From Escherichia coli (lineage in GTDB: Bacteria > Pseudomonadota > Gammaproteobacteria > Enterobacterales > Enterobacteriaceae): a stretch of 64,000 bases of DNA. The position numbers and the translations under genes are program-made. Positions 890 through 52,400 of the stretch are shown here, in pieces (within the stretch, counting starts at the first letter, position 1; the number at the start of each line of letters is the position of its first letter). The notes under the pieces were generated by a model. It searched no databases, had not been told where the DNA came from, and was given only the letters and a program-made list of their open reading frames with translations. Location of the stretch: assembly GCF_002854065.1 (NCBI RefSeq), contig NZ_CP024147.1; one strand, given 5' to 3'.

Positions 890-2529
890 GGTTTTTTCAC
901 CTCATCCTGTTTCTCGCGATACACCCCAGCAAAGGAGGCGTTACCAAACGGGCTAAGTACCAGACCTTTGATATCGTACCGATAGGCCTGCAAACGCAAT
1001 GACGACGCAAGCGGCAAAATGGGCAATTCCTGCGCCAGAATACTCTGCGCTTCGTCATAGGCTTCAATACGCGCCGCCAGCTGCTGCGAGGAGAGCGCCT
1101 TACGCAACACGCTGTCGAATTTCGGATCGCACCAGTGGGCGAGGTTGGTCTGTGAATGAATTGCCGCGCAGCTCAGTAACGGACGGAAGAAACTGTCCGG
1201 GTCGTTACTGTCCGTCGCCCAACCGGATAACGTCAGATCATGGCTCATATCCATCAACCGCGCCTCCTGAAAGCGACCTTCTATCGGCACAATCACCACT
1301 TTTACGCCAACCTGCGCCATATCCGCCTGAATCAGTTCGGCAGTTTTCAGTGGACTGGGGTTCCACGCCTGCGAACGTGTGGGCACCCACAGTTTCAGCG
1401 TTAAATTTTCCAGCCCCAACGACTTCAACTGTTCGCGCGATTTCGCCGGATTGTATTCAGTAATTTTAGCCTCGTTGTCATAGGCCCACGAGGCGCGCGG
1501 TAAAATAGAGGCCGCCGTTTCAGCCGTACCATAATAGATGGATTGCATCAGGCGCTGGTTATTAATCGCCAGTGCCAGCGCATGGCGGACAGCGGGATTA
1601 TTTAGCGGCGGTTTGGCGGTGTTAAATGCCAGATAGGCGACGTTCATCCCAGGACGCAGCGTTAAACGCAAGCGCGGGTCGTCACGCAAAATGGATAGCT
1701 GGCTGGCAGCAGGCCAGGCCAGAACGTCGCATTCACCAGTCAGGAGTTTCGACAGACGTCCGGTGCCGCCGGAGCCTAAATCCACCACTACCTGCGGCAT
1801 TAACGGTTTACCGCGCCAGAAGTCATCATGACGTTGTAGGCGAATAAATTGCCCGGCGCGGTATTCCGACAATTGATACGGACCGGTGCCGACCGGTTGA
1901 CGGTCGAGTTGCTCCTGGCGATCTTCTTTCTCTAACTTCCGGGCATATTCTGCCGACATGACCGAAGCATAATGGGTTGCGAGGTGCCACAAAAAAGAAG
2001 CATCCGGCTGGGCGAGTCGGAACTCAACGGTATGATTATCCAGTTTACGGACGCTTTTCACGTTATCGGCAAATTGCAGGCTGTCGAAGTAGGGGAAGTT
2101 GCTGCCGTTGACGTTATGCCACGGGTTGTTGCGGTCAAAAATTCGCTGGAAGGTAAACACCACATCGTCGGCATTCATTTTACGAGTGGGAGTAAACCAG
2201 TCGGTTTTTTGAAACGGAACATCGCGACGTAGGTGGAAGCGATAGGTCGCGCCGTTGTCGAGTACTTCCCAGCTTTCGGCAAGTTCTGGCATCAGGCGAT
2301 AGGTATAGGGATCGACATCCAGCAGTCGATCATAAAACTGGGCGGCAAGGGTATCGACAATTAACCCACTGCTCGCTTTGGATGGGTTAAAGGTGTTGAC
2401 TTGCCCGCTGACGCAATAGACAAAACCGCTGTCGCGGATATCAGCATGCGGGGGGGATTCAGGCGCGGCGATTGCCTGACCACTCACAAGTCCAGCAATC
2501 ACCAAAAGAGACGATAATACCTGGCGCAT
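886..2529 (-). CDS. sapA: Periplasmic peptide-binding protein SapA
   Basis: ORF track 547 aa with N-terminal signal peptide ([21 protein letters not shown]); length and sequence match my recall of K-12 SapA; sapB follows. Confidence 0.93.
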
Positions 2530-2840
2530 AATATTAAGGGATTTTATGTAAAGAGGCTATCTTACTAATATTTAATGACATTTGCCATTACCGTTTGTGT
2601 TCAGGGGTCGTAATGAGGGCCGTGTGGTTGGTCGTTGAACAGATGGCGTCGCCATCTGTTCAACATTCGTACCCGTGATTTCTCTATAACTATAACTCAC
2701 AGAACAACTTAGCGAGGAGCAGAGCGGTACGATCGTGAGAAACCCATTAAAGCACGCTGCAATGCGTGTCATTTTAACCGGATGCAGCGTGAACGCTTTA
2801 TCCGGGTAACGATACTGACCGATCGTCTGCAATTAAATAA

Positions 2841-3086
2841 TTACTCATTACCCCATTGATTCAAAAACTCTGCGATCTCATCAATGCGTACGGGATTAAT
2901 CCCCGCTTCAGCAGCCATTTCATGTTGGGCTTCTTCGCTGATCTCTTCATTGTTCATCAAACGGGTGAGCAGTAACTGGAAGTAGTGGGCCAGCGGTGTG
3001 CGTTCAGCCTCTGCGACAGGCTCTGCGCATTCGGTCGCGTACTCATCGGCAATATCAAAATATTTTAGCGGGATATCGTGGTTCAT
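2841..3086 (-). CDS. ymjA: Small conserved protein YmjA (DUF2543)
   Basis: ORF track 81 aa; position between sapA and puuP as in K-12; sequence recognised. Confidence 0.8.
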
Positions 3087-3219: not shown

Positions 3220-4605
3220 TTACGTTTCGCTCACTGGCGTTCTGTCACCTTCGTACAGCGGCACTTTGCGATAGCGGCGGATCAGATACCACAAATATGC
3301 GCCGCCTAACGAAGCCCATACCAGACCGAGTGTCAGTGACGTTGACTCGAGGTTAACCCACAGCACACCCACCGTCAGCGCGCCAACCAGCGGCATCAGC
3401 AAATAGTGGAAGTGATCCTTCCAGCTTTTATTCATTCCTTTGCGCCGCCAGAAATGATTAAACACCGACAGATTCACGAAGGTAAACGCCACCAGAGCAC
3501 CGAAGTTAATTAACGCTGTGGCGGTAACTAAATCGAAGAACAGCGCCGACAACGCGACAATCCCGACCATAATGACGTTCAGTGCCGGAGTCCGCCATTT
3601 TGGGTGCACATAGCCAAACACGCGCTCCGGAAACACATTGTCACGCCCCATCACATACAGCAGACGCGACACGCTGGCATGTGAAGCCAGGCCAGAGGCT
3701 AACGTGTTCACAAACGTGGTGCAGAGGAAAATCGACTGGAAGAGCTTGCCGCCGACGTACAGCGCAATTTCAGGCAGTGCGGCGTCCGGGTCTTTAAAGC
3801 GGCTGATATCGGGGAAGAACAGCTGCATAAAGAACGACGCCGCGATAAAGATAACGCCACCATAGACCGCCGTCAGGAAGATGGCTTTCGGGATCACGCG
3901 TGCGGCGTCTGGTGTCTCTTCCGAAAGTGTGGTCACCGCATCGAAACCAAGGAAAGAGAAGCAGACGATCGTCGCCCCGGTAATAATCGGAATCAGATGC
4001 GCGTTCTCGCTGATAAACGGCTGAAGTGACCAGACGGTGCCAACGCCTTCTCCTTTATGCAGTCCCTGAACCACCAGGAAGATAAACACCACCATGATGG
4101 AGATTTGCACCAGTACAAACAGGGTATTGAAGTTAGCGACCAGGTTGACGCTCTTCAGATTCGCGGCGGTTAAAATGGCGACGAAGGTTACCACCCACAC
4201 CCACGGCGGCACTTCCGGGAAGAGGGCGGAGAGATAGATTTTCGCCAACAAAACGTTGATCATCGGCAAAAAGAGATAATCCAGCAGTGATGACCAGCCG
4301 ACCATAAATCCGACGTGCGGGTTAATCGACTTTTGCGCGTAGGTATAGGCCGAACCGGCCTCCGGAAACTGGCGAACCAGTTTGCCGTAGCTGATAGCGG
4401 TAAACAGCACGCCCGCCAGCGCCAGCAAATAGGACGCCGGAACGTGACCGTCGCTAATGCCGGAGACAATACCAAAAGTATCAAATACGGTCATCGGCGT
4501 GAGATAGGCCAGACCCATCATCACCACCTGCCACAATTTCAGTGATTTTCGCAGACGGGTTTTGCCGGGTTGCGCGGCAATATTCAGTGGTGAATTAATA
4601 GCCAT
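3220..4605 (-). CDS. puuP: Putrescine importer PuuP (amino acid/polyamine permease)
   Basis: ORF track 3220..4659; start trimmed to Met giving 461 aa ([12 protein letters not shown]...), the K-12 PuuP length; multi-pass membrane protein. Confidence 0.9.
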
Positions 4606-4907
4606 AATTGCTGCCTCCCCTGCGTAATAAGGTTTGCGGTCGTGTCGACCTGAAATCAAACCTGTTTAGCAAGGGAAGCAAAGGGGGCGGAGTCCAGTCA
4701 GTCGCAGGAGGGGCGCATACGCAGCCTCCCTCGCCATGCGGGGATTTAATCATCGGCATCATCTCATTTCCTCGTCACAGTCTTAATCGTTAACGGAAGC
4801 CCGTTGCCGCCTGCGCTCCATAACGCGACATCCGGGAAATGTCTGGATTACCAGCAAATGTCAGGCCTGGCTCCGCTCAGGCCGATGAAACAACCCCGCA
4901 AGGGGTA

Positions 4908-6308
4908 TTACGCGTTTTTCAACATCCACTCAATTTCTGTTTCTGTGATGAGGCGCTCAAACTGCAACAGCTCATCATTTTTACAGGCGTGATACACATG
5001 GCAAAACCGTTCGCCTAAATAGCGGCGCAGGTGATCATTCTCGATAAACTCACCCAGGGCATCGCTCTGGCGAATCGGGAAGGGTAAGCCATCCTGTTCC
5101 AGCCCGTTGCCTTCGACTTCTTCCTGCAACGGCAGCTCGTTATCAAGACCGTGCAAAATACCGGCAAAAATCGCTGCCATCACCAGATATGGGTTGGCAT
5201 CGGCACCCGCCACGCGATATTCCACGCGGTGATTATGGCGATCGCCGCATGGAATACGCAGGGCGACGGTACGGTTATTATGGCCCCACGACGCCTGCGT
5301 CGGTACATACATACCTGGCTGGAAGCGGCGATACGAGTTCACGTTTGGTGCCAGCAACGCCATTGATGACGGCATCAGGTCAATCATCCCGGCGAGCATC
5401 TTTTTCAGCAGCGGCGAATCTTCGCCTTCTGTGTCAGAAAGCACGTTCTCGCCACGATTATTTTGCATACTGATATGGATATGCATTCCGCTGCCCGCGT
5501 GCTCTTCATACGGCTTCGCCATAAAAGTGGCGTGCATCTTATGCTTTTCTGCCATCAGACGCACCAGGCGTTTTAGTGCCAGCGCATCATCGCAGGCTTC
5601 CAGCACGTTATCAGTATGGTAAAGGTTGATTTCAAACTGACCCGGCGAGGCCTCAGCGACCGCGCCATCTGCCGGAATCAGCTGTAACTGCGCCAGTTCA
5701 TCAATATCATTGAGCACGTCGGCGAAGTGGTTGAGGTTATCAACGGAGTAAACCTGGCTTTGTGTATTGCGGTCATCAGTGCCGGGCGCGCAGGGCGGTT
5801 GCAGATACCCTTCAGCGTCGCGCTGGCGATCCAGTAAATAGAACTCCAGCTCTACCGCTACGACCGGGAACAATCCGCGCTGGCGCAGCTGCTGCCACAG
5901 GCGGTTAAGAACGTTCCGCGGCTCAACGTCAAAGGGAGCGCCATCTTCATCGACCATGGTCAGGAGCATCTGACCGATAAACTCTGGATCGGCGGCAGAA
6001 GGGGTTAAGGAACCGAGAACAGGAACACAGGTACGATCCGGCTCGCCCATTTCCTGACCCAGACCTGCTTCTTCTACTACGTTGCCCAGAATATCCATTG
6101 CAAATACCGAGGCCGGGAAATAACACCCTTTCTCGAGCTTCTTCAGGCTTGAAACAGGAATACGTTTTCCACGGAAGCAACCATTCAAATCGGTAAGTAA
6201 AACATCAACATATTGCGTATTCGGGTAGCGCTCCAGGTAGCGTTTCACTTCCTGCGTAAAGGCGCTACCCCGCCTCTCTTCTGACTGCTGAACAAAGTTC
6301 TCTACTTC
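4908..6308 (-). pseudogene. puuA: Gamma-glutamylputrescine synthetase puuA, body of the gene, separated from its first 9 codons by IS1
   Basis: ORF track 4908..6248 (446 aa, glutamine-synthetase-like); in-frame upstream codons ...VENFVQQSEERRGSAFTQEVKRY run to the IS1 end at 6309; native N-terminus is on the other side of IS1. Confidence 0.85.
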
Positions 6309-6323
6309 GGTAATGACTCCAAC

Positions 6324-6827
6324 TTATTGATAGTGTTTTATGTTCAGATAATGCCCGATGACTTTGTCATGCAGCTCCACCGATTTTGAGAACGACAGCG
6401 ACTTCCGTCCCAGCCGTGCCAGGTGCTGCCTCAGATTCAGGTTATGCCGCTCAATTCGCTGCGTATATCGCTTGCTGATTACGTGCAGCTTTCCCTTCAG
6501 GCGGGATTCATACAGCGGCCAGCCATCCGTCATCCATATCACCACGTCAAAGGGTGACAGCAGGCTCATAAGACGCCCCAGCGTCGCCATAGTGCGTTCA
6601 CCGAATACGTGCGCAACAACCGTCTTCCGGAGCCTGTCATACGCGTAAAACAGCCAGCGCTGGCGCGATTTAGCCCCGACGTATCCCCACTGTTCGTCCA
6701 TTTCCGCGCAGACGATGACGTCACTGCCCGGCTGTATGCGCGAGGTTACCGACTGCGGCCTGAGTTTTTTAAATGGCGGAAAATCGTGTTGAGGCCAACG
6801 CCCATAATGCGGGCGGTTGCCCGGCAT
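6324..6827 (-). CDS. insB: IS1 InsB (expressed as InsAB-prime transposase by -1 frameshift)
   Basis: ORF track 167 aa recognised as IS1 InsB; overlaps insA in the -1 frame. Confidence 0.9.
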
Positions 6828-7021
6828 CCAACGCCATTCATGGCCATATCAATGATTTTCTGGTGCGTACCGGGTTGAGAAGCGGTGTAAGTGAACTGCA
6901 GTTGCCATGTTTTACGGCAGTGAGAGCAGAGATAGCGCTGATGTCCGGCAGTGCTTTTGCCGTTACGCACCACCCCGTCAGTAGCTGAACAGGAGGGACA
7001 GCTGATAGAAACAGAAGCCAC
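6746..7021 (-). CDS. insA: IS1 InsA
   Basis: ORF track 91 aa [43 protein letters not shown]... recognised as IS1 InsA. Confidence 0.92.
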
Positions 7022-7076
7022 TGGAGCACCTCAAAAACACCATCATACACTAAATCAGTAAGTTGGCAGCATCACC

Positions 7077-7103
7077 CTCTACTTCAACGATATTGGTTTC
7101 CAT
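7077..7103 (-). pseudogene. puuA: puuA 5-prime fragment: start codon plus first 9 codons (METNIVEVE) stranded upstream of IS1
   Basis: Reverse translation from ATG at 7103 gives METNIVEVE then the IS1 end; the same VE(N) codons resume at 6308, consistent with a 9-bp target duplication. Confidence 0.8.
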
Positions 7104-16101: not shown

Positions 16102-16131
16102 GGTGTAAACAACGCCGCTTATTCATTTGAT
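16102..16131 (+). terminator. Putative terminator after pspE (agcggtgtaaacaacgccgct then T-rich tail)
   Basis: Imperfect hairpin with G-U pair followed by TATTCATTTG; read directly. Confidence 0.4.
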
Positions 16132-16202
16132 AAATCAAAATTAACCCACATTATTATCTCCAGTATCTAATCCTTTCTACAGCTTTCTGGCACAGGACAG
16201 CA

Positions 16203-32678: not shown

Positions 32679-32747
32679 TTAAGACAAACGTGGGTAAATC
32701 CCCGGACCTATCGGCAGACCAACAAGATACCACGCCAGCAACATCAG
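32679..32747 (-). pseudogene. abgT: Residual 3-prime end (22 codons + stop) of abgT, truncated by IS1
   Basis: Reverse translation [26 protein letters not shown] runs from the IS1 end to a stop 10 nt before the ogt start; abgT is the K-12 upstream neighbour of ogt. C-terminal identity is from synteny, not exact recall. Confidence 0.55.
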
Positions 32748-32802
32748 GGTGATGCTGCCAACTTACTGATTTAGTGTATGATGGTGTTTTTGAGGTGCTC
32801 CA

Positions 32803-33078
32803 GTGGCTTCTGTTTCTATCAGCTGTCCCTCCTGTTCAGCTACTGACGGGGTGGTGCGTAACGGCAAAAGCACTGCCGGACATCAGCGCTATCTCTGCTC
32901 TCACTGCCGTAAAACATGGCAACTGCAGTTCACTTACACCGCTTCTCAACCCGGTACGCACCAGAAAATCATTGATATGGCCATGAATGGCGTTGGATGC
33001 CGGGCAACCGCCCGCATTATGGGCGTTGGCCTCAACACGATTTTCCGCCATTTAAAAAACTCAGGCCGCAGTCGGTAA
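32803..33078 (+). CDS. insA: IS1 InsA
   Basis: ORF track 91 aa, same protein as copy 1. Confidence 0.92.
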
Positions 33079-33500
33079 CCTCGCGCATACAGCCGGGCAG
33101 TGACGTCATCGTCTGCGCGGAAATGGACGAACAGTGGGGATACGTCGGGGCTAAATCGCGCCAGCGCTGGCTGTTTTACGCGTATGACAGGCTCCGGAAG
33201 ACGGTTGTTGCGCACGTATTCGGTGAACGCACTATGGCGACGCTGGGGCGTCTTATGAGCCTGCTGTCACCCTTTGACGTGGTGATATGGATGACGGATG
33301 GCTGGCCGCTGTATGAATCCCGCCTGAAGGGAAAGCTGCACGTAATCAGCAAGCGATATACGCAGCGAATTGAGCGGCATAACCTGAATCTGAGGCAGCA
33401 CCTGGCACGGCTGGGACGGAAGTCGCTGTCGTTCTCAAAATCGGTGGAGCTGCATGACAAAGTCATCGGGCATTATCTGAACATAAAACACTATCAATAA
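32997..33500 (+). CDS. insB: IS1 InsB
   Basis: ORF track 167 aa, same protein as copy 1. Confidence 0.9.
33054..33060 (+). promoter_or_regulatory. IS1 A6C slippery motif (AAAAAAC) for programmed -1 frameshift producing InsAB-prime
   Basis: Motif read directly in the insA/insB overlap; mechanism is established IS1 biology. Equivalent motif is present in copies 1 and 3. Confidence 0.6.
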
Positions 33501-33515
33501 GTTGGAGTCATTACC

Positions 33516-33656
33516 GGTTCGTAGCTGACTAAACGTGAGTTCTTGCATCAACAGTCGCGCCGCGCTATTGGCATAAATTAACTGTTCCTCAAAGGGCGAA
33601 ACGATCCAGACAGGACTGGTGAGTAAGTCCAGGGTATTGAAGTTGTGCGTAATCAT
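33516..33656 (-). pseudogene. dgcM: Residual 5-prime end (~47 codons, MITHNFNTLDLLTSPVWIVSPFEEQLIYANSAARLLMQELTFSQLRT) of diguanylate cyclase dgcM (ydaM), truncated by IS1
   Basis: ORF track 33435..33716 runs into IS1; the portion outside IS1 resembles the DgcM N-terminal PAS region as I recall it; divergent from zntB as in K-12. Confidence 0.6.
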
Positions 33657-33889
33657 TGAGATCCCATTATTTTTATCAATTTTTGTTGCTATCCGATCGC
33701 AAAAAAGCCACATCATATGATCAGATAATTCTGATAATGATAGACGCTATTTAACACTTCACACGGTTTGTATACGGAAAAGCATTTTGCTTTTTGTATT
33801 CAATTTAGACAGAATTTTATTAATCATTTCAGGGTAATGGGGTGATGAGATGTTGCGTAACAGGGCCAGAAGGCTAGACTACAAAATAA

Positions 33890-34894
<1,005 letters not shown>

Positions 34895-34940
34895 CAAAAG
34901 CAATTTTTCCGGCTATCTGTATACAAAAACGCCGCAAAGT

Positions 34941-34954
34941 TTGAGCGAAGTCAA
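34941..34954. promoter_or_regulatory. FNR-binding site TTGAGCGAAGTCAA centred ~42 bp upstream of fnrS
   Basis: Close match to TTGAT-N4-ATCAA; class II spacing to the sRNA 5-prime end. Confidence 0.6.
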
Positions 34955-34989
34955 TAAACTCTCTACCCATTCAGGGCAATATCTCTCTT

Positions 34990-35111
34990 GCAGGTGAATG
35001 CAACGTCAAGCGATGGGCGTTGCGCTCCATATTGTCTTACTTCCTTTTTTGAATTACTGCATAGCACAATTGATTCGTACGACGCCGACTTTGATGAGTC
35101 GGCTTTTTTTT
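34990..35111 (+). ncRNA. fnrS: FnrS small RNA (FNR-activated, Hfq-dependent)
   Basis: Sequence gcaggtgaatgcaacgtcaagcgatgggcgttgcgctccatattgtc... recognised from memory as FnrS; ends in hairpin gacgccgactttgatgagtcggc plus T8; lies between zntB and dbpA as in K-12. Confidence 0.85.
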
Positions 35112-35168
35112 GCCTGTTATTTATCAGCGTCTACCCTTTAAGAGTCCACCCAATGACCGGAGGGAAAT

Positions 35169-35342
35169 ATGACGACACTTATTTATTTGCAAATTCCTGT
35201 CCCTGAACCGATTCCTGGCGATCCTGTTCCAGTTCCCGATCCGATCCCTCGCCCGCAACCCATGCCTGACCCACCACCCGATGAAGAACCGATTAAATTG
35301 TCGCATCGTGAGCGTAGATCTGCGAGGATACGCGCCTGCTAA
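35169..35342 (+). CDS. Candidate small proline-rich protein (57 aa) with strong Shine-Dalgarno, immediately upstream of dbpA
   Basis: ATG at 35169 preceded by GGAGGG at suitable spacing; translation MTTLIYLQIPVPEPIPGDPVPVPDPIPRPQPMPDPPPDEEPIKLSHRERRSARIRAC; below the ORF-track size cutoff; no homology evidence available to me. Confidence 0.3.
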   Translation: MTTLIYLQIPVPEPIPGDPVPVPDPIPRPQPMPDPPPDEEPIKLSHRERRSARIRAC

Positions 35343-35371
35343 CTTTGCGTCGATGACCACGAGAATAGATT

Positions 35372-36745
35372 GTGACCGCTTTTTCTACCCTGAATGTTTT
35401 GCCTCCCGCCCAACTCACGAACCTTAATGAGTTGGGTTATTTAACCATGACGCCGGTGCAGGCCGCCGCGCTTCCGGCGATCCTTGCCGGAAAAGATGTT
35501 CGCGTGCAGGCGAAAACTGGCAGCGGCAAAACGGCGGCTTTTGGCCTCGGCTTGTTACAGCAAATTGATGCGTCGCTATTTCAAACCCAGGCTTTAGTGC
35601 TGTGTCCTACGCGTGAACTGGCGGATCAGGTGGCAGGTGAATTGCGTCGGCTGGCGCGTTTTCTGCCAAATACCAAAATTTTGACGTTGTGCGGTGGTCA
35701 ACCGTTCGGTATGCAGCGTGATTCGTTGCAACATGCGCCGCATATTATCGTGGCAACGCCGGGCCGTTTGCTGGATCACCTGCAAAAAGGCACGGTATCA
35801 CTGGATGCGCTGAATACTTTGGTGATGGATGAGGCCGACCGCATGCTGGATATGGGATTTAGCGATGCCATTGATGATGTCATCCGTTTTGCGCCGGCAT
35901 CTCGACAGACGCTTCTGTTTTCGGCAACCTGGCCGGAAGCCATCGCCGCAATCAGCGGACGAGTGCAACGCGATCCTTTGGCGATTGAAATTGACTCAAC
36001 AGATGCTTTGCCACCCATTGAACAACAATTTTATGAGACATCCAGTAAAGGCAAAATTCCTCTGTTGCAACAGTTATTAAGCTTGCATCAGCCATCCTCT
36101 TGCGTGGTGTTTTGCAATACCAAAAAAGATTGCCAGGCTGTCTGCGACGCGCTGAATGAAGTAGGGCAAAGTGCATTGTCATTACACGGCGATTTGGAGC
36201 AACGCGATCGCGATCAGACCCTGGTACGTTTTGCTAACGGTAGCGCCCGTGTACTGGTCGCGACTGATGTTGCTGCGCGTGGTCTGGATATTAAATCGCT
36301 TGAGCTGGTGGTGAACTTTGAGCTGGCGTGGGACCCTGAAGTTCATGTACATCGCATCGGTCGTACAGCTCGTGCAGGAAATAGCGGTCTGGCGATCAGT
36401 TTCTGTGCTCCGGAAGAAGCACAGCGGGCCAATATCATTTCTGACATGTTGCAGATAAAACTTAACTGGCAAACGCCGCCAGCTAATAGTTCCATTGTGA
36501 CGCTGGAAGCAGAAATGGCAACGTTGTGTATCGATGGCGGGAAAAAAGCCAAAATGCGCCCGGGTGATGTATTAGGTGCACTGACAGGAGATATCGGGCT
36601 TGATGGCGCAGATATAGGCAAAATCGCCGTGCATCCGGCGCATGTCTATGTCGCGGTCCGTCAGGCTGTTGCTCATAAAGCATGGAAACAGTTACAGGGC
36701 GGGAAGATTAAAGGAAAAACGTGCCGGGTGCGGTTATTAAAATAA
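35372..36745 (+). CDS. dbpA: ATP-dependent RNA helicase DbpA (DEAD-box, 23S rRNA-specific)
   Basis: ORF track 457 aa, alternative (GTG) start; motifs AKTGSGKT and DEAD (VMDEADRM). Confidence 0.92.
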   Translation: MTAFSTLNVLPPAQLTNLNELGYLTMTPVQAAALPAILAGKDVRVQAKTGSGKTAAFGLGLLQQIDASLFQTQALVLCPTRELADQVAGELRRLARFLPNTKILTLCGGQPFGMQRDSLQHAPHIIVATPGRLLDHLQKGTVSLDALNTLVMDEADRMLDMGFSDAIDDVIRFAPASRQTLLFSATWPEAIAAISGRVQRDPLAIEIDSTDALPPIEQQFYETSSKGKIPLLQQLLSLHQPSSCVVFCNTKKDCQAVCDALNEVGQSALSLHGDLEQRDRDQTLVRFANGSARVLVATDVAARGLDIKSLELVVNFELAWDPEVHVHRIGRTARAGNSGLAISFCAPEEAQRANIISDMLQIKLNWQTPPANSSIVTLEAEMATLCIDGGKKAKMRPGDVLGALTGDIGLDGADIGKIAVHPAHVYVAVRQAVAHKAWKQLQGGKIKGKTCRVRLLK

Positions 36746-36793
36746 TGAAATGTTGAATTGCCGGGTGCAAGAGTAAACATCTTATTCGGGATT

Positions 36794-36863
36794 GCCGGAT
36801 GCGACGCTGGCCGCGTCTTATCCGGCCTCCATAAGAGTAGCCCGATACGCTTGCGCATCGGGC
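36794..36863. repeat. REP elements (gccggatgcgacgctggccgcgtcttatccggc and cccgatacgcttgcgcatcgggc) between convergent dbpA and ttcA
   Basis: Palindromic REP consensus read directly. Confidence 0.75.
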
Positions 36864-36873
36864 GCTATCCTGG

Positions 36874-37809
36874 TTATTTCACTTCAACCACATTCAGCCG
36901 TAACTCATCCAACTGATTTTCATCTTCTTCTGGCTGCCAGCCCGCCGGTTGTAGTGGGATCTCTTCGCGATCAAACGCCAGATCACCCCCGTTAACCACT
37001 TCAGAACCGTGGGTGATGCCTTTGAAATCGAACAGGTTGGTATCGCACAGATGCGACGGCACCACATTCTGCATCGCGCTGAACATCGTCTCGATACGCC
37101 CTGGATAACGTTTATCCCAGTCACGCAACATGTCAGCAATCACCTGACGTTGCAGGTTAGGCTGTGAACCGCACAGGTTGCACGGAATAATGGGGAACGC
37201 TTTTGCATCGGCAAATCGCTGAATATCTTTCTCGCGGCAGTAGGCCAGCGGACGAATAACGATATGTTTGCCATCATCGCTCATCAGTTTCGGAGGCATA
37301 CCTTTCATCTTGCCGCCGTAGAACATATTTAAGAACAGCGTCTGCAGGATATCGTCACGATGGTGACCCAGCGCGATCTTCGTCGCCCCCAGTTCCGTTG
37401 CGGTACGATAAAGAATACCGCGACGAAGGCGAGAACACAGTGAGCAAGTGGTTTTGCCCTCTGGAATCTTCTCTTTCACGATACCGTAAGTGTTCTCTTC
37501 AACAATCTTGTACTCAACGCCCAGCTTTTCAAGATACTCGGGCAGAACGTGCTCCGGGAAGCCCGGTTGCTTTTGATCGAGGTTAACAGCCACCAGCGAA
37601 AAATTGATTGGCGCGCTTTGCTGCAAATTGCGCAGAATCTCCAGCATGGTATAGCTGTCTTTACCCCCGGAGAGGCAAACCATGATGCGATCGCCTTCTT
37701 CAATCATATTGAAGTCAGCAATGGCTTCGCCCACGTTACGACGCAGGCGTTTTTGTAATTTGTTCAGGTTGTATTGTTCTTTCTTGCTAATTTCTTGATT
37801 TTGCGACAT
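36874..37809 (-). CDS. ttcA: tRNA 2-thiocytidine synthetase TtcA
   Basis: ORF track 311 aa; PP-loop SGGKDS and CxxC pairs. Confidence 0.92.
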
Positions 37810-37984
37810 TTAAAAGCGACTCAATTCGTTATATGGCATCAGAAGAGTATGCGTCATGCCGGAACGCCCAGCATAAGAAATCTGATATAAAAACTGTGGC
37901 GTGTATGGTACGGATTAGAGAGGAAAATGTCAGCACATTTGCGAAATGAATCAAAAAGCCCGCAGCAATGTGCGGGCGTTAGTG

Positions 37985-38500
<516 letters not shown>

Positions 38501-38525
38501 TTAGATCAAAGGAGGAATAATAAGC

Positions 38526-38551
38526 AGAAAAAGCCCGCCATAACAGCGGGC
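38526..38551 (-). terminator. Rho-independent terminator of ompN (gcccgc-N7-gcgggc followed by U-run on the minus strand)
   Basis: Hairpin plus A5 on plus strand immediately 3-prime of the ompN stop. Confidence 0.7.
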
Positions 38552-38559
38552 AGGAGGAT

Positions 38560-39693
38560 TTAGAACTGATAAACCAGACCTAAAGCGACAATATCATCGG
38601 TAGAGATGCCGTTGGCAGCGTAGAAACTGTCATCTTCATCCAACAGGTTGATTTTATAGTCAACATAAGTGGACATGTTTTTATTGAAATAGTAAGTCGC
38701 GCCAACATCGGCGTATTTAACCAGATCTTTATCATCAACACCTGCCGGGTTGTCTGCACCACCGGCAGCGTGCAGGTCACGGCCTTTAGACATCAGGAAA
38801 GAGACTGCCGGACGCAGACCAAAATCAAACTGGTACTGTGCAGTGACTTCAAAGTTCTGGGTTTTGTTCGCAACTGCATAATCGCTGTCGCCAAACGGGG
38901 TCATATTACGCGTTTCTGAATACATGGTTGCCAGGTAAATATTGTTAGCATCGTATTTTAGCCCAGCAGTCCACGCGTCTGCTTTATCACCACCCGCCGC
39001 AGTATGGTTAACCTGGTCATTGGTGCGGTCAGAAGAGGTGTATGCCGCACCAGCGCTAAAGCCCATGCCTAAATCATATGTTGTGGAAAGACCCCAGCCG
39101 TCACCGTTTTCATGGCGAACATCACGTCCGTTGTTGGTGCCTTCCTGACCATTACTGGCACCTTCGTTGTTACCTTGATACTGCACCGCGAAGTTCAGAC
39201 CATTTACCAGACCGAAGAAATCAGTATTACGATAAGTCGCGACGCCATTGGCACGACCAGTCATAAAGTTGTCTGCATTGGTATAAGAGTCACCGCCAAA
39301 TTCAGGCAGCATATCGGTCCAGCCTTCGATGTCGTACATTACGCCATAATTACGTCCGTAATCGAAAGAACCGTAATCTGCAAATTTCAGTCCGGCAAAT
39401 GCCAGACGGGTCCATGACTGGTTTTTTGAAGATTCAGTGTTGTTTGCCTGAATATTGTATTCCCATTGACCGTAGCCAGTAAGTTGATCGTTAATTTGGG
39501 TTTCGCCTTTAAAACCCAGACGCGCATAGCTCTGGTCGCCATCTTTCGCTGAATTATCAGAAAAATAATGCAGGCCATCAACTTTGCCATACAGATCTAA
39601 TTTGTTGCCGTCTTTATTATAAACTTCGGCTGCATGTGCAGCACCTGCGGCGATCAGGGCAGGAATTAAAAGTGCCAGTACTTTGCTTTTCAT
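38560..39693 (-). CDS. ompN: Outer membrane porin OmpN
   Basis: ORF track 377 aa; signal peptide, porin fold ending ...LGLVYQF. Confidence 0.92.
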
Positions 39694-39920
39694 TGAATAA
39701 ATCCTTTAGTTATTTTATTTGCCTTTTATCCCCATTTCGGGGAGTGAAAACATCCTAAAGGAGAAGTTCAGTTAGCCGATAAATATCATTTGTTACGCCT
39801 TAAGTAAAACCTTAATCAAATAATTCCTCTGAAATGATAATAAGTCTGGTGAATGTATCGAAGATAATACATACAAAATAAAAATTATACTTTTTATTTT
39901 CTATACGTTATTCTGCGCGG

Positions 39921-40029
39921 GTTATATGCCTTTATTGTCACAGATTTTATTTTCTGTTGGGCCATTGCATTGCCACTGATTTTCCAACATATAAAAAGAC
40001 AAGCCCGAACAGTCGTCCGGGCTTTTTTT
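39921..40029 (+). ncRNA. micC: MicC small RNA (OmpC translational repressor)
   Basis: Sequence gttatatgcctttattgtcacagattttattttctgttgggccattgcattgccactg... recognised from memory; terminator gcccgaacagtcgtccgggc + T7; lies between ompN and pfo as in K-12. Confidence 0.85.
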
Positions 40030-40057
40030 AGAATTGGATAATCCTTATCCAGAGCAT

Positions 40058-43000
40058 TTAATCGGTGTTGCTTTTTTCCGCTTTTCCGGCCATTTGTGCC
40101 AGGAAGTCATAGCGTTTTTGCAAATCAGCTGCAGCATCTTTCCATAACTGTTCTGCCACTTCTGGCTGCTGCGAATTCAGACGACGGAAACGTTGCTCGT
40201 GAAGTAACGTTTCTTCCAGTGCTTCTGACGGCGGGCGTGAATCCAGCGCCAGCGGCAGTTTGCCTTCATCGGCACGACGCGGATCGAAGCGATATAGCGG
40301 CCAGAAGCCGGTAGCTGTGAGTTGGCGCATCTGGTCATGGCTGAGTGCCAGATCGTAACCATGCTCTTCACACGGGCTATAAGCAATGATCAGCGATGGT
40401 CCCGGATACGCTTCCGCTTCCTGAATCGCTTTCACCGTCTGGTTCAGTTGCGCGCCGAGAGAAATCTGCGCCACATAAACATGACCGTACATCATCATAC
40501 TGACGCCAAGATCTTTACGCGCTTTACGTTTGCCGTGCTCGCCAAATTTAGTTACTGCACCCAGCGGTGTCGCTTTCGACGCCTGACCACCGGTGTTGGA
40601 ATAGCATTGCGTATCCAGCACCAGAATGTTGACGTTTTCCGTCAAACTCAATACATGATCCAGACCGCCAAAGCCGATATCGTAAGCCCAGCCGTCGCCA
40701 CCAATCAGCCAGATTGATTTTTCTACCAGTGCATCTGCGTCACGCAGCAGTTCATGTGCTTCGGCAACATCGTTGAGTTGCTGGCGTAAAGCTGCGACCT
40801 GTTCTCGACGAACCTCTGGCGTAGCGTCTGATTTCAACGCCGTCAGTAATTCCGCCGGGATTTTATCGGCAAATTGATCCAGCAGACGCAGCACGCGGAC
40901 ACGGTGTTGATCGACCGTCAGGCGGAAACCAAGGCCAAATTCGGCATTATCTTCAAATAGAGAGTTCGCCCATGCCGGCCCACGACCGTTGGCATCGGTG
41001 GTATACGGTGTAGAGGGCAGGTTACCGCCATAAATTGAAGAACAGCCGGTGGCGTTAGCGATCAACATCCGGTCGCCATAGAGCTGAGTCAGCAATTTAA
41101 TATACGGCGTCTCGCCACAACCGGAGCAAGCACCGGAATATTCAAACAGCGGTGTAATCAGCTGCGATGTACGAATATCAATACGTTCCAGTTTGCTACG
41201 GTCTATTTCTGGCAGGTTGAGGAAGAAATCGTAATTGATTTTCTCTTCTTCGACATGTTCCAGGCGAGACATCATATTGATGGCTTTAATCTCTGGATTC
41301 TGACGGTCTTTCGCCGGGCAAACTTCGACGCACAGGTTACAACCGGTGCAATCTTCCGGTGCCACCTGCAAGACATATTTCTGCCCGCGCATATCACGCG
41401 ATTTCACATCCAGCGAATGCAGGCTGGCAGGGGCGTTTTCCATCGCTTCAGGCGGCACCACTTTTGCGCGAATAGCTGAGTGTGGGCAAGCGGCAACGCA
41501 GTGGTTACATTGGGTACAGAGTTCCTCTTTCCAGATGGGGATCTCTTCGGCGATATTGCGTTTTTCCCAGCGTGTAGTGCCCATCGGCCAGGTGCCGTCT
41601 GGCGGCAGCGCCGAAACGGGGAGGGCATCACCAAGCCCGGCGAGCATCGCAGCGGTTACGGTTTTCACGAAATCAGGGGCGGCATCGGAAACCACTGGCG
41701 GTCGATTGGCGCTGTGCGGATTTACCGGTTGCAACGGAACTTCTTCTACGGATTCACGCGCCAGCGCCAGAGCCTGCCAGTTGCGCTCCACCAGATCCTG
41801 GCCTTTGCTACTGTAACTTTTGGCAATCGCACCCTGCAATTCTGCGAGGGCGCTATCGCCAGGCAGAATTTGCGTCAGATGGAAAAAAGCCATCTGCATG
41901 ACGGTATTAATACGGGCCGCCAGGCCACATTCGCGGGCGATTTTCGCTGCGTTAATCACATAGAAGCACGCTTTTTTCTGGTTTAACACGGCCTGAACTT
42001 CTTGCGGCAAGCGCGACCACACTTCATCTGCGCTGTACGGCGTGTTGAGCAGGAAAATGCCGCCAGGTTTTAAACGCTCAGCCATCTGATATTTATCGAT
42101 AAACTGCAACTGGTGGCAGCCAACAAAATCAGCCTGGGAAATGAGATAAGCGGAACGAATCGGCTGTTCGCTCACTCGAAGGTGAGAAACCGTCAGACCG
42201 CCCGCCTTTTTGGAGTCGTAAACAAAATAGCCCTGTGCGTACCACGGCGTGGAATTACCGATAATCTTGATATTGTTTTTGGTCGCGGAAACGCTGCCAT
42301 CACTACCAAGGCCATAAAACAAGGCTTCCAGTTTCGCCGAGTTTGGCAGGGTGTTTTCCGGCAACGGCAGTGACAGATTGGTCACATCATCGTAAATACC
42401 AACCGTAAAGCGCGCTTTCGGTTTAGCCGCGTTGAGCTCGGCAAATACCGCCAGTACACAGTCCGGGCCAAATTCTTTGGATGAAAGACCATAGCGCCCA
42501 CCAATGACACGGGGCAGAGTTTCGCGCTCGCCATTATTAAAGGCTTCTGCCAGTGCGGTCATTACATCCAGATAGAGCGGTTCTGCCTGGGCACCGGGTT
42601 CTTTGGTTCTGTCCAGTACCGCTACGCTGCGTACGGATCCCGGCAGAGCTTGCAGCAAGTGTTTGGCGGAGAAGGGACGGTACAGGCGAACTTTCAGCAC
42701 GCCAACTTTTTCGCCACGGGTTAGCAATTCATCAACCACTTCTTCACAGGTGCCAATGGCAGAGCCCATCAGGATAATCACCCGTTCCGCTTGCGGATGC
42801 CCGTAATATTCAAACGGCTGATACTGACGACCTGTCGCGGCAGAGAAATCATTCATCGCCTGTTCAACATGGTCATAGACCGCGTTGTACCATGGGTTGG
42901 TGGCTTCGCGAGACTGGAAATAAGTGTCAGGATTGGCGGACGTACCGCGGATCACCGGATGTTCCGGGTTGAGCGCCCGGGCGCGATGAGCATCAATTTC

Positions 43001-49408: not shown

Positions 49409-52400
49409 ATGCAAAGGAAAAAATTATTGTCTGTTTGTGTTGCCATGGCGTTAAGTAGCCAGACATGGGCTGCGGATACTTCAATACCCGACTCAACCGA
49501 AAAAACACGTAAGTCCAGTAAGATAACATGTCCGGCAAATATTCATTCCCTGAGCAAAGAGCAGCTAGAAAATTTATCCGCGGAGTGCAGAGAAAATAAA
49601 GATAGTGCAGTTTTACCATGGGCAGCTGCAGGTCTTGCTGCAGTAGCTACGGGAATTGCTATATATACCTTAAGTGACGATGACAATCACCACCATAATA
49701 ACTCCCCAGTTCCGGATGATGGCGGTGATACGCCAGTTCCGCCAGACGACGGCGGTGATACGCCGGTTCCGCCAGATGACGGCGGTGATACGCCGGTTCC
49801 GCCAGATGACGGCGGTGATACGCCAGTTCCGCCAGATGACGGCGGTGATACGCCAGTTCCGCCAGATGACGGCGATGATACGCCGGTTCCGCCAGATGAC
49901 GGCGGTGATACGCCAGTTCCGCCAGATGACGGCGGTGATACGCCAGTTCCGCCAGATGACGGCGGTGATACGCCGGTTCCACCAGATGATGGCGGTGATA
50001 CGCCAGTTCCAGACGACGGCGGTGATACGCCTGTTCCGCCAGACGATGGTGGCGATACCCCGGTTAAACACGATCCTGTCGTCTATAAAAATGACGTAAC
50101 CTGGGATCAGGACGCGAAAACCGTCAAAATTCGCGAAACCACCTTTACCTACAGCCAAAATGCCGATGGGAGTTACACCTTAACCGCGCCTGATGGCCTG
50201 ACGACGATAGTCAAGGGCTGGACAGTCCATGACGACAGCAACACCGTCATCTTTGATGGCGTAAATACGGCAGGTGGCATCACCTGGAGCTACGACGATG
50301 ATGGGCTCATCCATATCACTAAAGAGGCCGGTGTCGTTGTTGATGGCACAACCGGAACTGCGATTGATTTTGGTAATGCGATCATCACCGATCAGGGCGG
50401 CAATACGGCGCTGAATGGCGGTACTGTCATGACGGTTGAGGGTGACAACATCACCCTCAACAACGACGGTAAAACGACCGCCATCGGCGAGGGTTCGGTC
50501 GTTGGTATCCTTACTGGTGACGATATCACTATCAATAACAACGGCGAGACGGAAGTTGACGGCGGTACCGCAGTAATCATCAATGGCGATAATGCTACGC
50601 TGAACACTGCGGGCGACTCGACCATCACCAATGGTGGTACGGGTAGCCTTATCAATGGCGATAATGCGCGGGTCGATAATCAAGGTACCATGAGCGTTGA
50701 CGGTGAGAATTCCACTGGCTCGAAAATTGTCGGTGACGGTGCCACCATCAAACAGGAAGGCGACTTATACGTAAGCGGTGGTGCGCACGGTATTGACGTT
50801 GACGGCAATGATACGTTCGTTAGCAACAAAGGTAATATTACGGTCATCGAAGATAACTCTATTGGCATGCTGCTTGATGGTGATGGCGTCAGCGTGATCA
50901 ACATGGGCGACCTCAATGTTGGTCAGGCCGCAGCGGGTGAAAATGCCATTGGCATTCAGATCGACGGTGATAATGCGACATTTGTTAACGTTGGTGATAT
51001 TTCCGCGACCAATGCCGGAACCGGTGTCAGCGTTGCTGGGGATAAAGCTAATATTTCACTCGCGGGTGGGTTAGACGTTGGGGATTTCTCCACCGGTCTT
51101 GATGTCTCTGGCAATAATAACAACATGACGCTGGCGACTTATGAGCTGAATGTGACAGGGCAAAAAGCGACGGGTGTTAATGTTTCGGGTGATGGCAATA
51201 CGATTGAAATCGCAGGCAGCATTCTGGTTGATAAAGATCAGAAAGCCGATAATGCGCAACCTTACTTCTTTAATCCCTCAACCGGCGTAAATATCAGCGG
51301 TAATAACAATGACGTCACGCTGGATGGTCAGTTAACCGTTGTTGCTGATAGCGAAACCACTACGCGTTCCTATGCAAGTTACGACGGTGCTCAGGAGCAC
51401 ATTGCGGGTATTGTTATTGCTGGCGATGACAATACCTTCACGCTTAATGGCGGTGTCCATTTTGTCGGTGAAAAAAATGTCATGGATGATGGCTCAAAAC
51501 CTGCCGCATCTCGTCGTGGTATCGGAGATACACCGCTTATGAGCGTTGATGGGCATTCCTCAGTCTACCTCAATGGTGAGTCAACCATCAGCGGTGAGTT
51601 CCCGCTGGGTTTCGAAAATCTCATTCAACTGAGTAATGGCGCGGAGCTGGAGATTGGCGCTGACGCAACGTTTGATATGAGTGATGTGGATTCTTTCACT
51701 TATTATTATCGTGTAGCGTTATCCACTATTAGTATTGATTATGGTGCGAAGGCGACAAACAACGGTGAAGTGGAACTGAAAAATATCGGTTTTGCGGCTG
51801 CCTGGAATAAAGATTCAACGGTAATCAATAACGGATCCATTGGCCTGGCGATGTACGATTTTGGTACCGACCCGGCACCAAAAGTCTTTGACGTTGAATA
51901 CGGTGGGATTGGCGTTAACAATGGTACCATGACCACCAAAATGATGAATCAGCACAGTGTGCTGAATTATCCGGCAGAGTGGAACTTGTCTGATGGTACC
52001 TCTTTCAATAACAAGGCATTAGGGCTGACAGGTATGCTTGCCAGCTACTCGTCATCCATTCTGAACGGCGAAACGGGCATTATTGATATGTATGGCCGTG
52101 GCAGTGTAGGGATGCTAGCCATCGATAAATCAACCGCGGATAACGAAGGGCAAATCACCCTGGATACGCTGTGGGTTGATGAAAATGATGAAACATCGCT
52201 GCGTAATAATGTTGCAAATAGCACGGCGAAAGATTTCGGTGTGGGAATGGCTTCAGGTACCGATGCCTATAATGGGGCATTAACTAAAGCCACGGCAACC
52301 AACCACGAGAATGGTGTGATTACTGTCTACAACGCCGGTGCGGGGATGGCGGCGTATGGGAATACTAATACGGTCATTAACCAGGGAACCATCAACCTGG

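Follow-up and report, generated by a model that had tools for sequence, protein, structure and literature searches.

The closest described system is the Rac attachment site of Liu et al. 2015 (Sci Rep 5:16074, PMC4632033), which shares with the DNA analysed here the locus, the 26-bp core and the TtcA' N-terminus (MSQNQEIS...), and has the same neighbours, dbpA-ttcA and, on the opposite side, uspF-ompN-micC-ydbK; the two differ by polymorphisms at strain level only. In that work, excision of Rac gave the same four-residue change at the TtcA N-terminus that separates this sequence from K-12, and the excised form was named TtcA'. The TtcA' form was present in all the Rac-free strains examined and is regarded as ancestral, and on overproduction it deals with carbenicillin less successfully than the lysogen form does (Liu et al. 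2015, PMC4632033).

The lysogenic strain K-12 MG1655 has the gene order ttcA-intR ... ynaM-ttcC-uspF. Its annotation places the cryptic prophage Rac at 1411899..1434958, beginning with intR, between ttcA and ttcC/uspF. In this annotation the prophage and ttcA share the first 50 bp of the gene, and intR is found 51 bp upstream of where ttcA starts. At the far end of Rac, just before uspF, stands ttcC, a 51-bp pseudogene. Integration into the end of a gene is likewise found for e14 in icd and for the lambdoid and P4-like phages at the 3' ends of tRNA genes; for gene-end phages, a near-copy of the gene end in attP keeps the host gene intact, and the opposite junction retains a short pseudogene fragment (PMC6379469). 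With Rac, in contrast to e14 and the tRNA-gene phages, it is the 5' end of a protein-coding gene that is exchanged, start codon and upstream region included, and this replacement swaps the promoter context of ttcA besides a few residues.

The DNA analysed here is a 64-kb stretch (the window) of the E. coli chromosome, from around minute 30 of the K-12 map. With a probability of about 95%, the ttcA locus of the window is considered an unoccupied attB for Rac-family lambdoid prophages, with its core at 37760..37785 in ttcA codons 9-17. This attB is the Rac attB of Liu et al. 2015, is implied by the K-12 ttcC annotation and is already known.

Gene content of the ttcA locus and absence of Rac

The two genes at the locus and the DNA between them were as follows:

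36874..37809, minus strand: ttcA, tRNA 2-thiocytidine(32) synthetase, 311 aa (ORF and NCBIfam)
37985..38419, minus strand: uspF, universal stress protein F, 144 aa (NCBIfam NF011581)
37810..37984, minus strand: uspF-ttcA spacer, 175 bp, bacterial DNA and not an att site (alignment)

TtcA was assigned with NCBIfam NF007972 (513.6 bits, cutoff 272) and UspF with NF011581 (303.3 bits, cutoff 166, profile positions 1-144 of 144), the UspF score being taken with the 144-aa start at 38419. The RefSeq annotation of strain 100416 has ttcA and uspF at the same positions, and the K-12 annotation agrees on uspF. Both genes are intact, and the ORF list gives a gap of exactly 175 bp between them (37810..37984), the length that the preliminary description of this DNA had claimed. 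The neighbours are zntB, fnrS, ynaL and dbpA on one side and ompN, micC and ydbK on the other. The small RNAs FnrS (34990..35107, Rfam, 134.8 bits) and MicC (39918..40038, Rfam, 125.4 bits) are both intact and lie on opposite sides of the ttcA-uspF-ompN block.

An earlier statement that ttcA is uninterrupted was right in that the full 311-codon gene is present here, but it does not distinguish the window from K-12. The K-12 ttcA also has its full 311 codons, because the phage supplies replacement codons 1-16. The true difference between the window and K-12 is which N-terminus and which upstream region ttcA carries.

Comparison of K-12 (NC_000913, 1408000-1438000) with the whole 64-kb window by blastn (E<=1e-5) produced only two matches. 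One ran from K-12 zntB to ttcA (window 33861..37802, 98.9% identity) and the other from K-12 ttcC to ydbK (window 37760..40798, 98.7% identity), so that the flanking bacterial DNA is 98.7-98.9% identical, while the 23-kb interior of Rac, including intR, had zero matches anywhere in the 64 kb at this threshold. K-12 MG1655 thus has 23 kb of Rac between the positions of window 37785 and 37786, together with a phage-derived 5' end of ttcA (MQENQQIT...) and ttcC, whereas the window has none of these. The ORF list contained no ORF of integrase size in the 175-bp gap, and the ttcC pseudogene fragment is absent from the window. A second att core, which would make up a pair of attL and attR, is also absent, with one copy of the core in 64 kb even when 3 mismatches were allowed. 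The strain is Rac-free, and ttcA and uspF are therefore adjacent. The K-12 annotation agrees with the earlier statement that Rac separates ttcA from uspF at the ttcA start, and the blastn search of the K-12 Rac region, which returned flank matches only, bears out the absence of an integrase or phage remnant.

Other parts of the window differ from K-12 and from strain 100416, and three copies of IS1 are involved. The copy at 32747..33516 has no target-site duplication and stands in for 5.8 kb of the otherwise near-identical strain 100416, a segment that holds an abgT remnant, an AraC-type regulator, HlyD, a DHA2 MFS pump, smrA and most of dgcM. Only about the first 48 codons of dgcM are left in the window, and the arrangement looks like an IS1-associated deletion truncating the diguanylate cyclase DgcM. 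The copy at 6308..7077 (minus strand) has a 9-bp target duplication, lies in the first codons of puuA, the glutamate-putrescine ligase gene, and is absent from 100416. The third copy (57716..58484) also has a 9-bp target duplication and lies inside ydbD. Strain 100416 has a single IS1 in place of window 49659..61925 (the ydbA autotransporter, pdxI, ydbD, ynbA, ynbB and part of ynbC), and the relatives therefore differ there by IS1-mediated rearrangement. Three K-12 blocks are missing from the window, at about 16104..16189, about 32748..33513 and about 48999/49000, namely the ycjM-ycjW/ompG sugar island, the abg operon with mcaS, and the feaR-feaB-tynA-paa phenylacetate cluster. The IS5F found near ynaJ in K-12 is missing as well. 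The segment 22815..24506 is extra in comparison with K-12, which has just ymjC/ymjD fragments there; its counterpart in strain 100416 is made up of alpha/beta-hydrolase and SDR oxidoreductase genes.

Attachment-site core and N-terminus of TtcA

Three features were placed within the 5' part of ttcA:

37760..37785, no strand assigned: attB core, 26 bp, TTGTTCAGGTTGTATTGTTCTTTCTT, inside ttcA codons 9-17 (three-way alignment)
37786..37809, minus strand: native ttcA codons 1-8 (alignment, junction table and translations)
37788..37800, plus strand: match to the IHF consensus TAANNNNTTGATW, TAATTTCTTGATT, adjoining the core inside ttcA (pattern search)

The three-way alignment and the junction table showed that the core is identical at 26 of 26 positions in K-12 attL, K-12 attR and the window. 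To the left of the core the window agrees with the ttcA body, the bacterial side of K-12 attL; to the right it agrees with ttcC and the spacer next to uspF, the bacterial side of K-12 attR. The overlap of the two blastn matches to K-12 is window 37760..37802, and imperfect similarity beyond the 26-bp core extends to the ATG at 37809, all within the ttcA CDS. The core has no second copy in the window, where 0 chance matches are expected even at 3 mismatches, and the same 26-bp position is annotated as the att site in the record of phage Rac-SA53 (KU052037). Alignment to the K-12 Rac attL/attR junctions, which had been proposed as the check on this locus, thus gave a 26-bp core at 37760..37785. 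The claim of an unoccupied attachment site stood as far as the locus is empty; its placement at 37810..37984 did not, the core lying 25-50 bp outside that stretch.

In comparison with K-12 ttcC, codon 8 is AGC in the window and AGT in K-12 (37786, G vs A), a synonymous difference, and the window has one synonymous change relative to K-12 at 37747. Given its 26/26 identity with sites in use, the attB of the window should be recombination-competent. In the junction comparison, which covered six genomes, the Rac-SA53 and RMDEC465 junctions depart from the K-12 core after base 15, and RMDEC465 differs from it at position 9 too. Strand exchange is expected to fall within the 26-bp core, and these few junctions suggest that it is likeliest in the left part, 37760..37774. 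Six records of the phage collection matched intR and no free-phage attP was obtained from them, the best intR-matching records being prophage predictions that include host ttcA/dbpA or start at the junction. There was no independent attP, and attP was therefore reconstructed from attL and attR.

The IHF consensus had 3 matches in the window vs 1.3 expected, and the match at 37788..37800 is therefore not significant alone. A GeF-seq study reported that IHF gives a peak on the motif in its K-12 attL version and gives none on the ttcC version (PMC8407004). The version in the window is of the ttcC type.

On its phage side, K-12 attL has an inexact version of ttcA codons 1-8, tgtaatttgttgattttcttgcat, where the window has gctaatttcttgattttgcgacat. 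Between the phage-borne and the native codons 1-8, 6 of the 24 bases and 4 amino acids differ, and in lysogens the native codons 1-8 remain as the ttcC pseudogene. On translation, TtcA of the K-12 lysogen starts with MQENQQITKK (longer stretch MQENQQITKKEQYN), while the N-terminus of TtcA in the window is of the prophage-free TtcA' type, MSQNQEIS..., with four residues differing from the K-12 lysogen form. The window encodes TtcA'.

Population frequency and alternative explanations

A 901-bp query across the empty junction was searched against 5,426 complete E. coli genomes. The junction was contiguous in 2,488 of them (46%), and in the remaining genomes the query was split into pieces that stopped at query positions 361 and 403, which correspond to window 37760 and 37802. 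Occupied sites were counted with a 501-bp query across the K-12 ttcA/intR junction, at least 80% covered, and a K-12-type ttcA/integrase junction was present in 2,909 of the 5,426 genomes (54%). The two classes of junction account for nearly all of the genomes. A review gives Rac at the ttcA locus in 69% of 638 strains (PMC6379469). The empty site is one of two common alleles, an ordinary polymorphism that is already known. The closest complete genome, strain 100416, has an empty junction that is 100% identical. A ranking of the nearest genomes favours unsplit matches and is so biased on the choice between a never-occupied and a cured site.

Other states of the locus were seen among the compared strains. 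Strains CD306 and RMDEC465 share the locus and the attL core and have about 2.3 kb of degraded Rac-like remnant separating ttcA from uspF (locus 3962..6147 in each), whereas the window is without any remnant. The remnant includes a truncated integrase, a DUF1627 fragment and a frameshifted 'metal ABC transporter permease'; it has kept the attL core but the attR core is absent, and excision is therefore no longer possible. Strain 472 (O157-like) has a large prophage at the ttcA site, in which nleC, a type III effector gene, is located immediately inward of attR (locus 1936..2922).

The gene order would fit an attachment site in the spacer 37810..37984, with Rac inserting between the genes, since the annotated ttcA and uspF genes of K-12 have Rac between them. 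However, the whole spacer is found on one side of K-12 Rac only, beside ttcC/uspF, the duplication at the prophage ends is 37760..37785, inside ttcA, and the 2,900-odd split genomes break at window 37760 and 37802. The attL has also been located within the ttcA coding region (Liu et al., PMC4632033), and a site in the spacer is refuted by the alignment. An assembly artefact in which a prophage was collapsed or left out is considered highly improbable. Nothing specific favours it: prophages, and the three IS1 copies of the window, are repeats able to break assemblies, but the junction agrees at every base with that of strain 100416, an independent complete chromosome, the same contiguous arrangement occurs in 2,488 complete genomes, and both flanks are collinear for tens of kb.

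An ancestor that was a Rac-like lysogen could also have lost its prophage by precise IntR/XisR excision. Natural excision of Rac regenerates exactly such an attB with the TtcA' N-terminus (PMC4632033), and IntR-type elements are present in 54% of the complete E. coli genomes, so past occupancy at some point in the lineage is plausible. Against a cured site, all 24 bases that follow the core on its right match the bacterial (ttcC) version, the site is likewise empty in the nearest complete genome, and TtcA' is regarded as ancestral (Liu et al., PMC4632033); this history is held to be unlikely. Precise excision is scarless, and the sequence therefore fits never-occupied and cured histories alike. 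The reading of the locus as an unoccupied Rac-family attB with its core inside ttcA is the one followed below.

The native upstream spacer and proposed consequences of integration

Compared with the ttcC-uspF spacer of K-12, the 175-bp spacer differs by a single substitution and by a 1-bp indel within a run of A. Two elements were located in it:

37958..37977, minus strand: intrinsic terminator of uspF, GCCCGCACATTGCTGCGGGC then TTTTTG (terminator scan)
37905..37933, minus strand: sigma-70-like promoter candidate, CTGACA, 17-nt spacer, TACCAT (consensus scan)

The hairpin of the uspF terminator was the clearest helix, present in both the MFE and the centroid folds of the spacer. The native promoter, 5' leader and ribosome-binding site of ttcA presumably lie within the spacer. 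The sigma-70 consensus scan produced two sites in 1 kb vs 1.8 expected by chance; the promoter sites are at chance level, and 37905..37933 is therefore only a candidate. The fold of the spacer on the ttcA strand had a z-score of -2.07, its clearest helix being the uspF terminator hairpin, and was not counted as support for a structured leader RNA. Rfam at the gathering threshold gave fnrS and micC only in the whole window and none in the spacer. A permissive scan of 37650..38100 returned STnc310 in the spacer, which was rejected (19.4 bits vs a gathering score of 40, E=0.36); this sub-threshold match is on the strand antisense to the uspF terminator.

In the proposed mechanism, Rac-family phages would integrate by means of the tyrosine integrase IntR. 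Their attP would consist of the same core followed by the phage's own imperfect ttcA codons 1-8, start codon and upstream sequence. After integration ttcA would still be complete, with four residues at its N-terminus altered and DNA of the phage upstream. Its original first codons (the future ttcC) would now lie beyond the far end of the prophage, along with the native upstream region and uspF. With no integration in the window, ttcA retains its native N-terminus and the native 175-bp upstream spacer. It is tentatively proposed, at somewhat less than even odds, that the spacer holds the native ttcA promoter and leader and that Rac integration thereby cuts ttcA off from its native regulation and puts it downstream of intR/xisR, genes that are RpoS-regulated (Liu et al., PMC4632033).

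For annotation, the strain can be recorded as Rac-free, with the TtcA' isoform, and as one that should accept Rac-like phages. The att core lies inside ttcA (37760..37785), and primers or deletions based on the spacer would therefore miss it; a full ttcA deletion removes the att site, as noted for the Keio mutant (Liu et al., PMC4632033). The empty ttcA site is a potential entry point for virulence cargo, as in the nleC prophage of strain 472; some Rac-like phages in pathogenic strains carry type III effectors such as NleC. If the proposed change of regulation is true, the orphaned native promoter would point into the ynaM/ynaE end of the prophage, tRNA C32 thiolation would be under its ancestral regulation in Rac-free strains, and in about half of all E. 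coli it would be phage-rewired.
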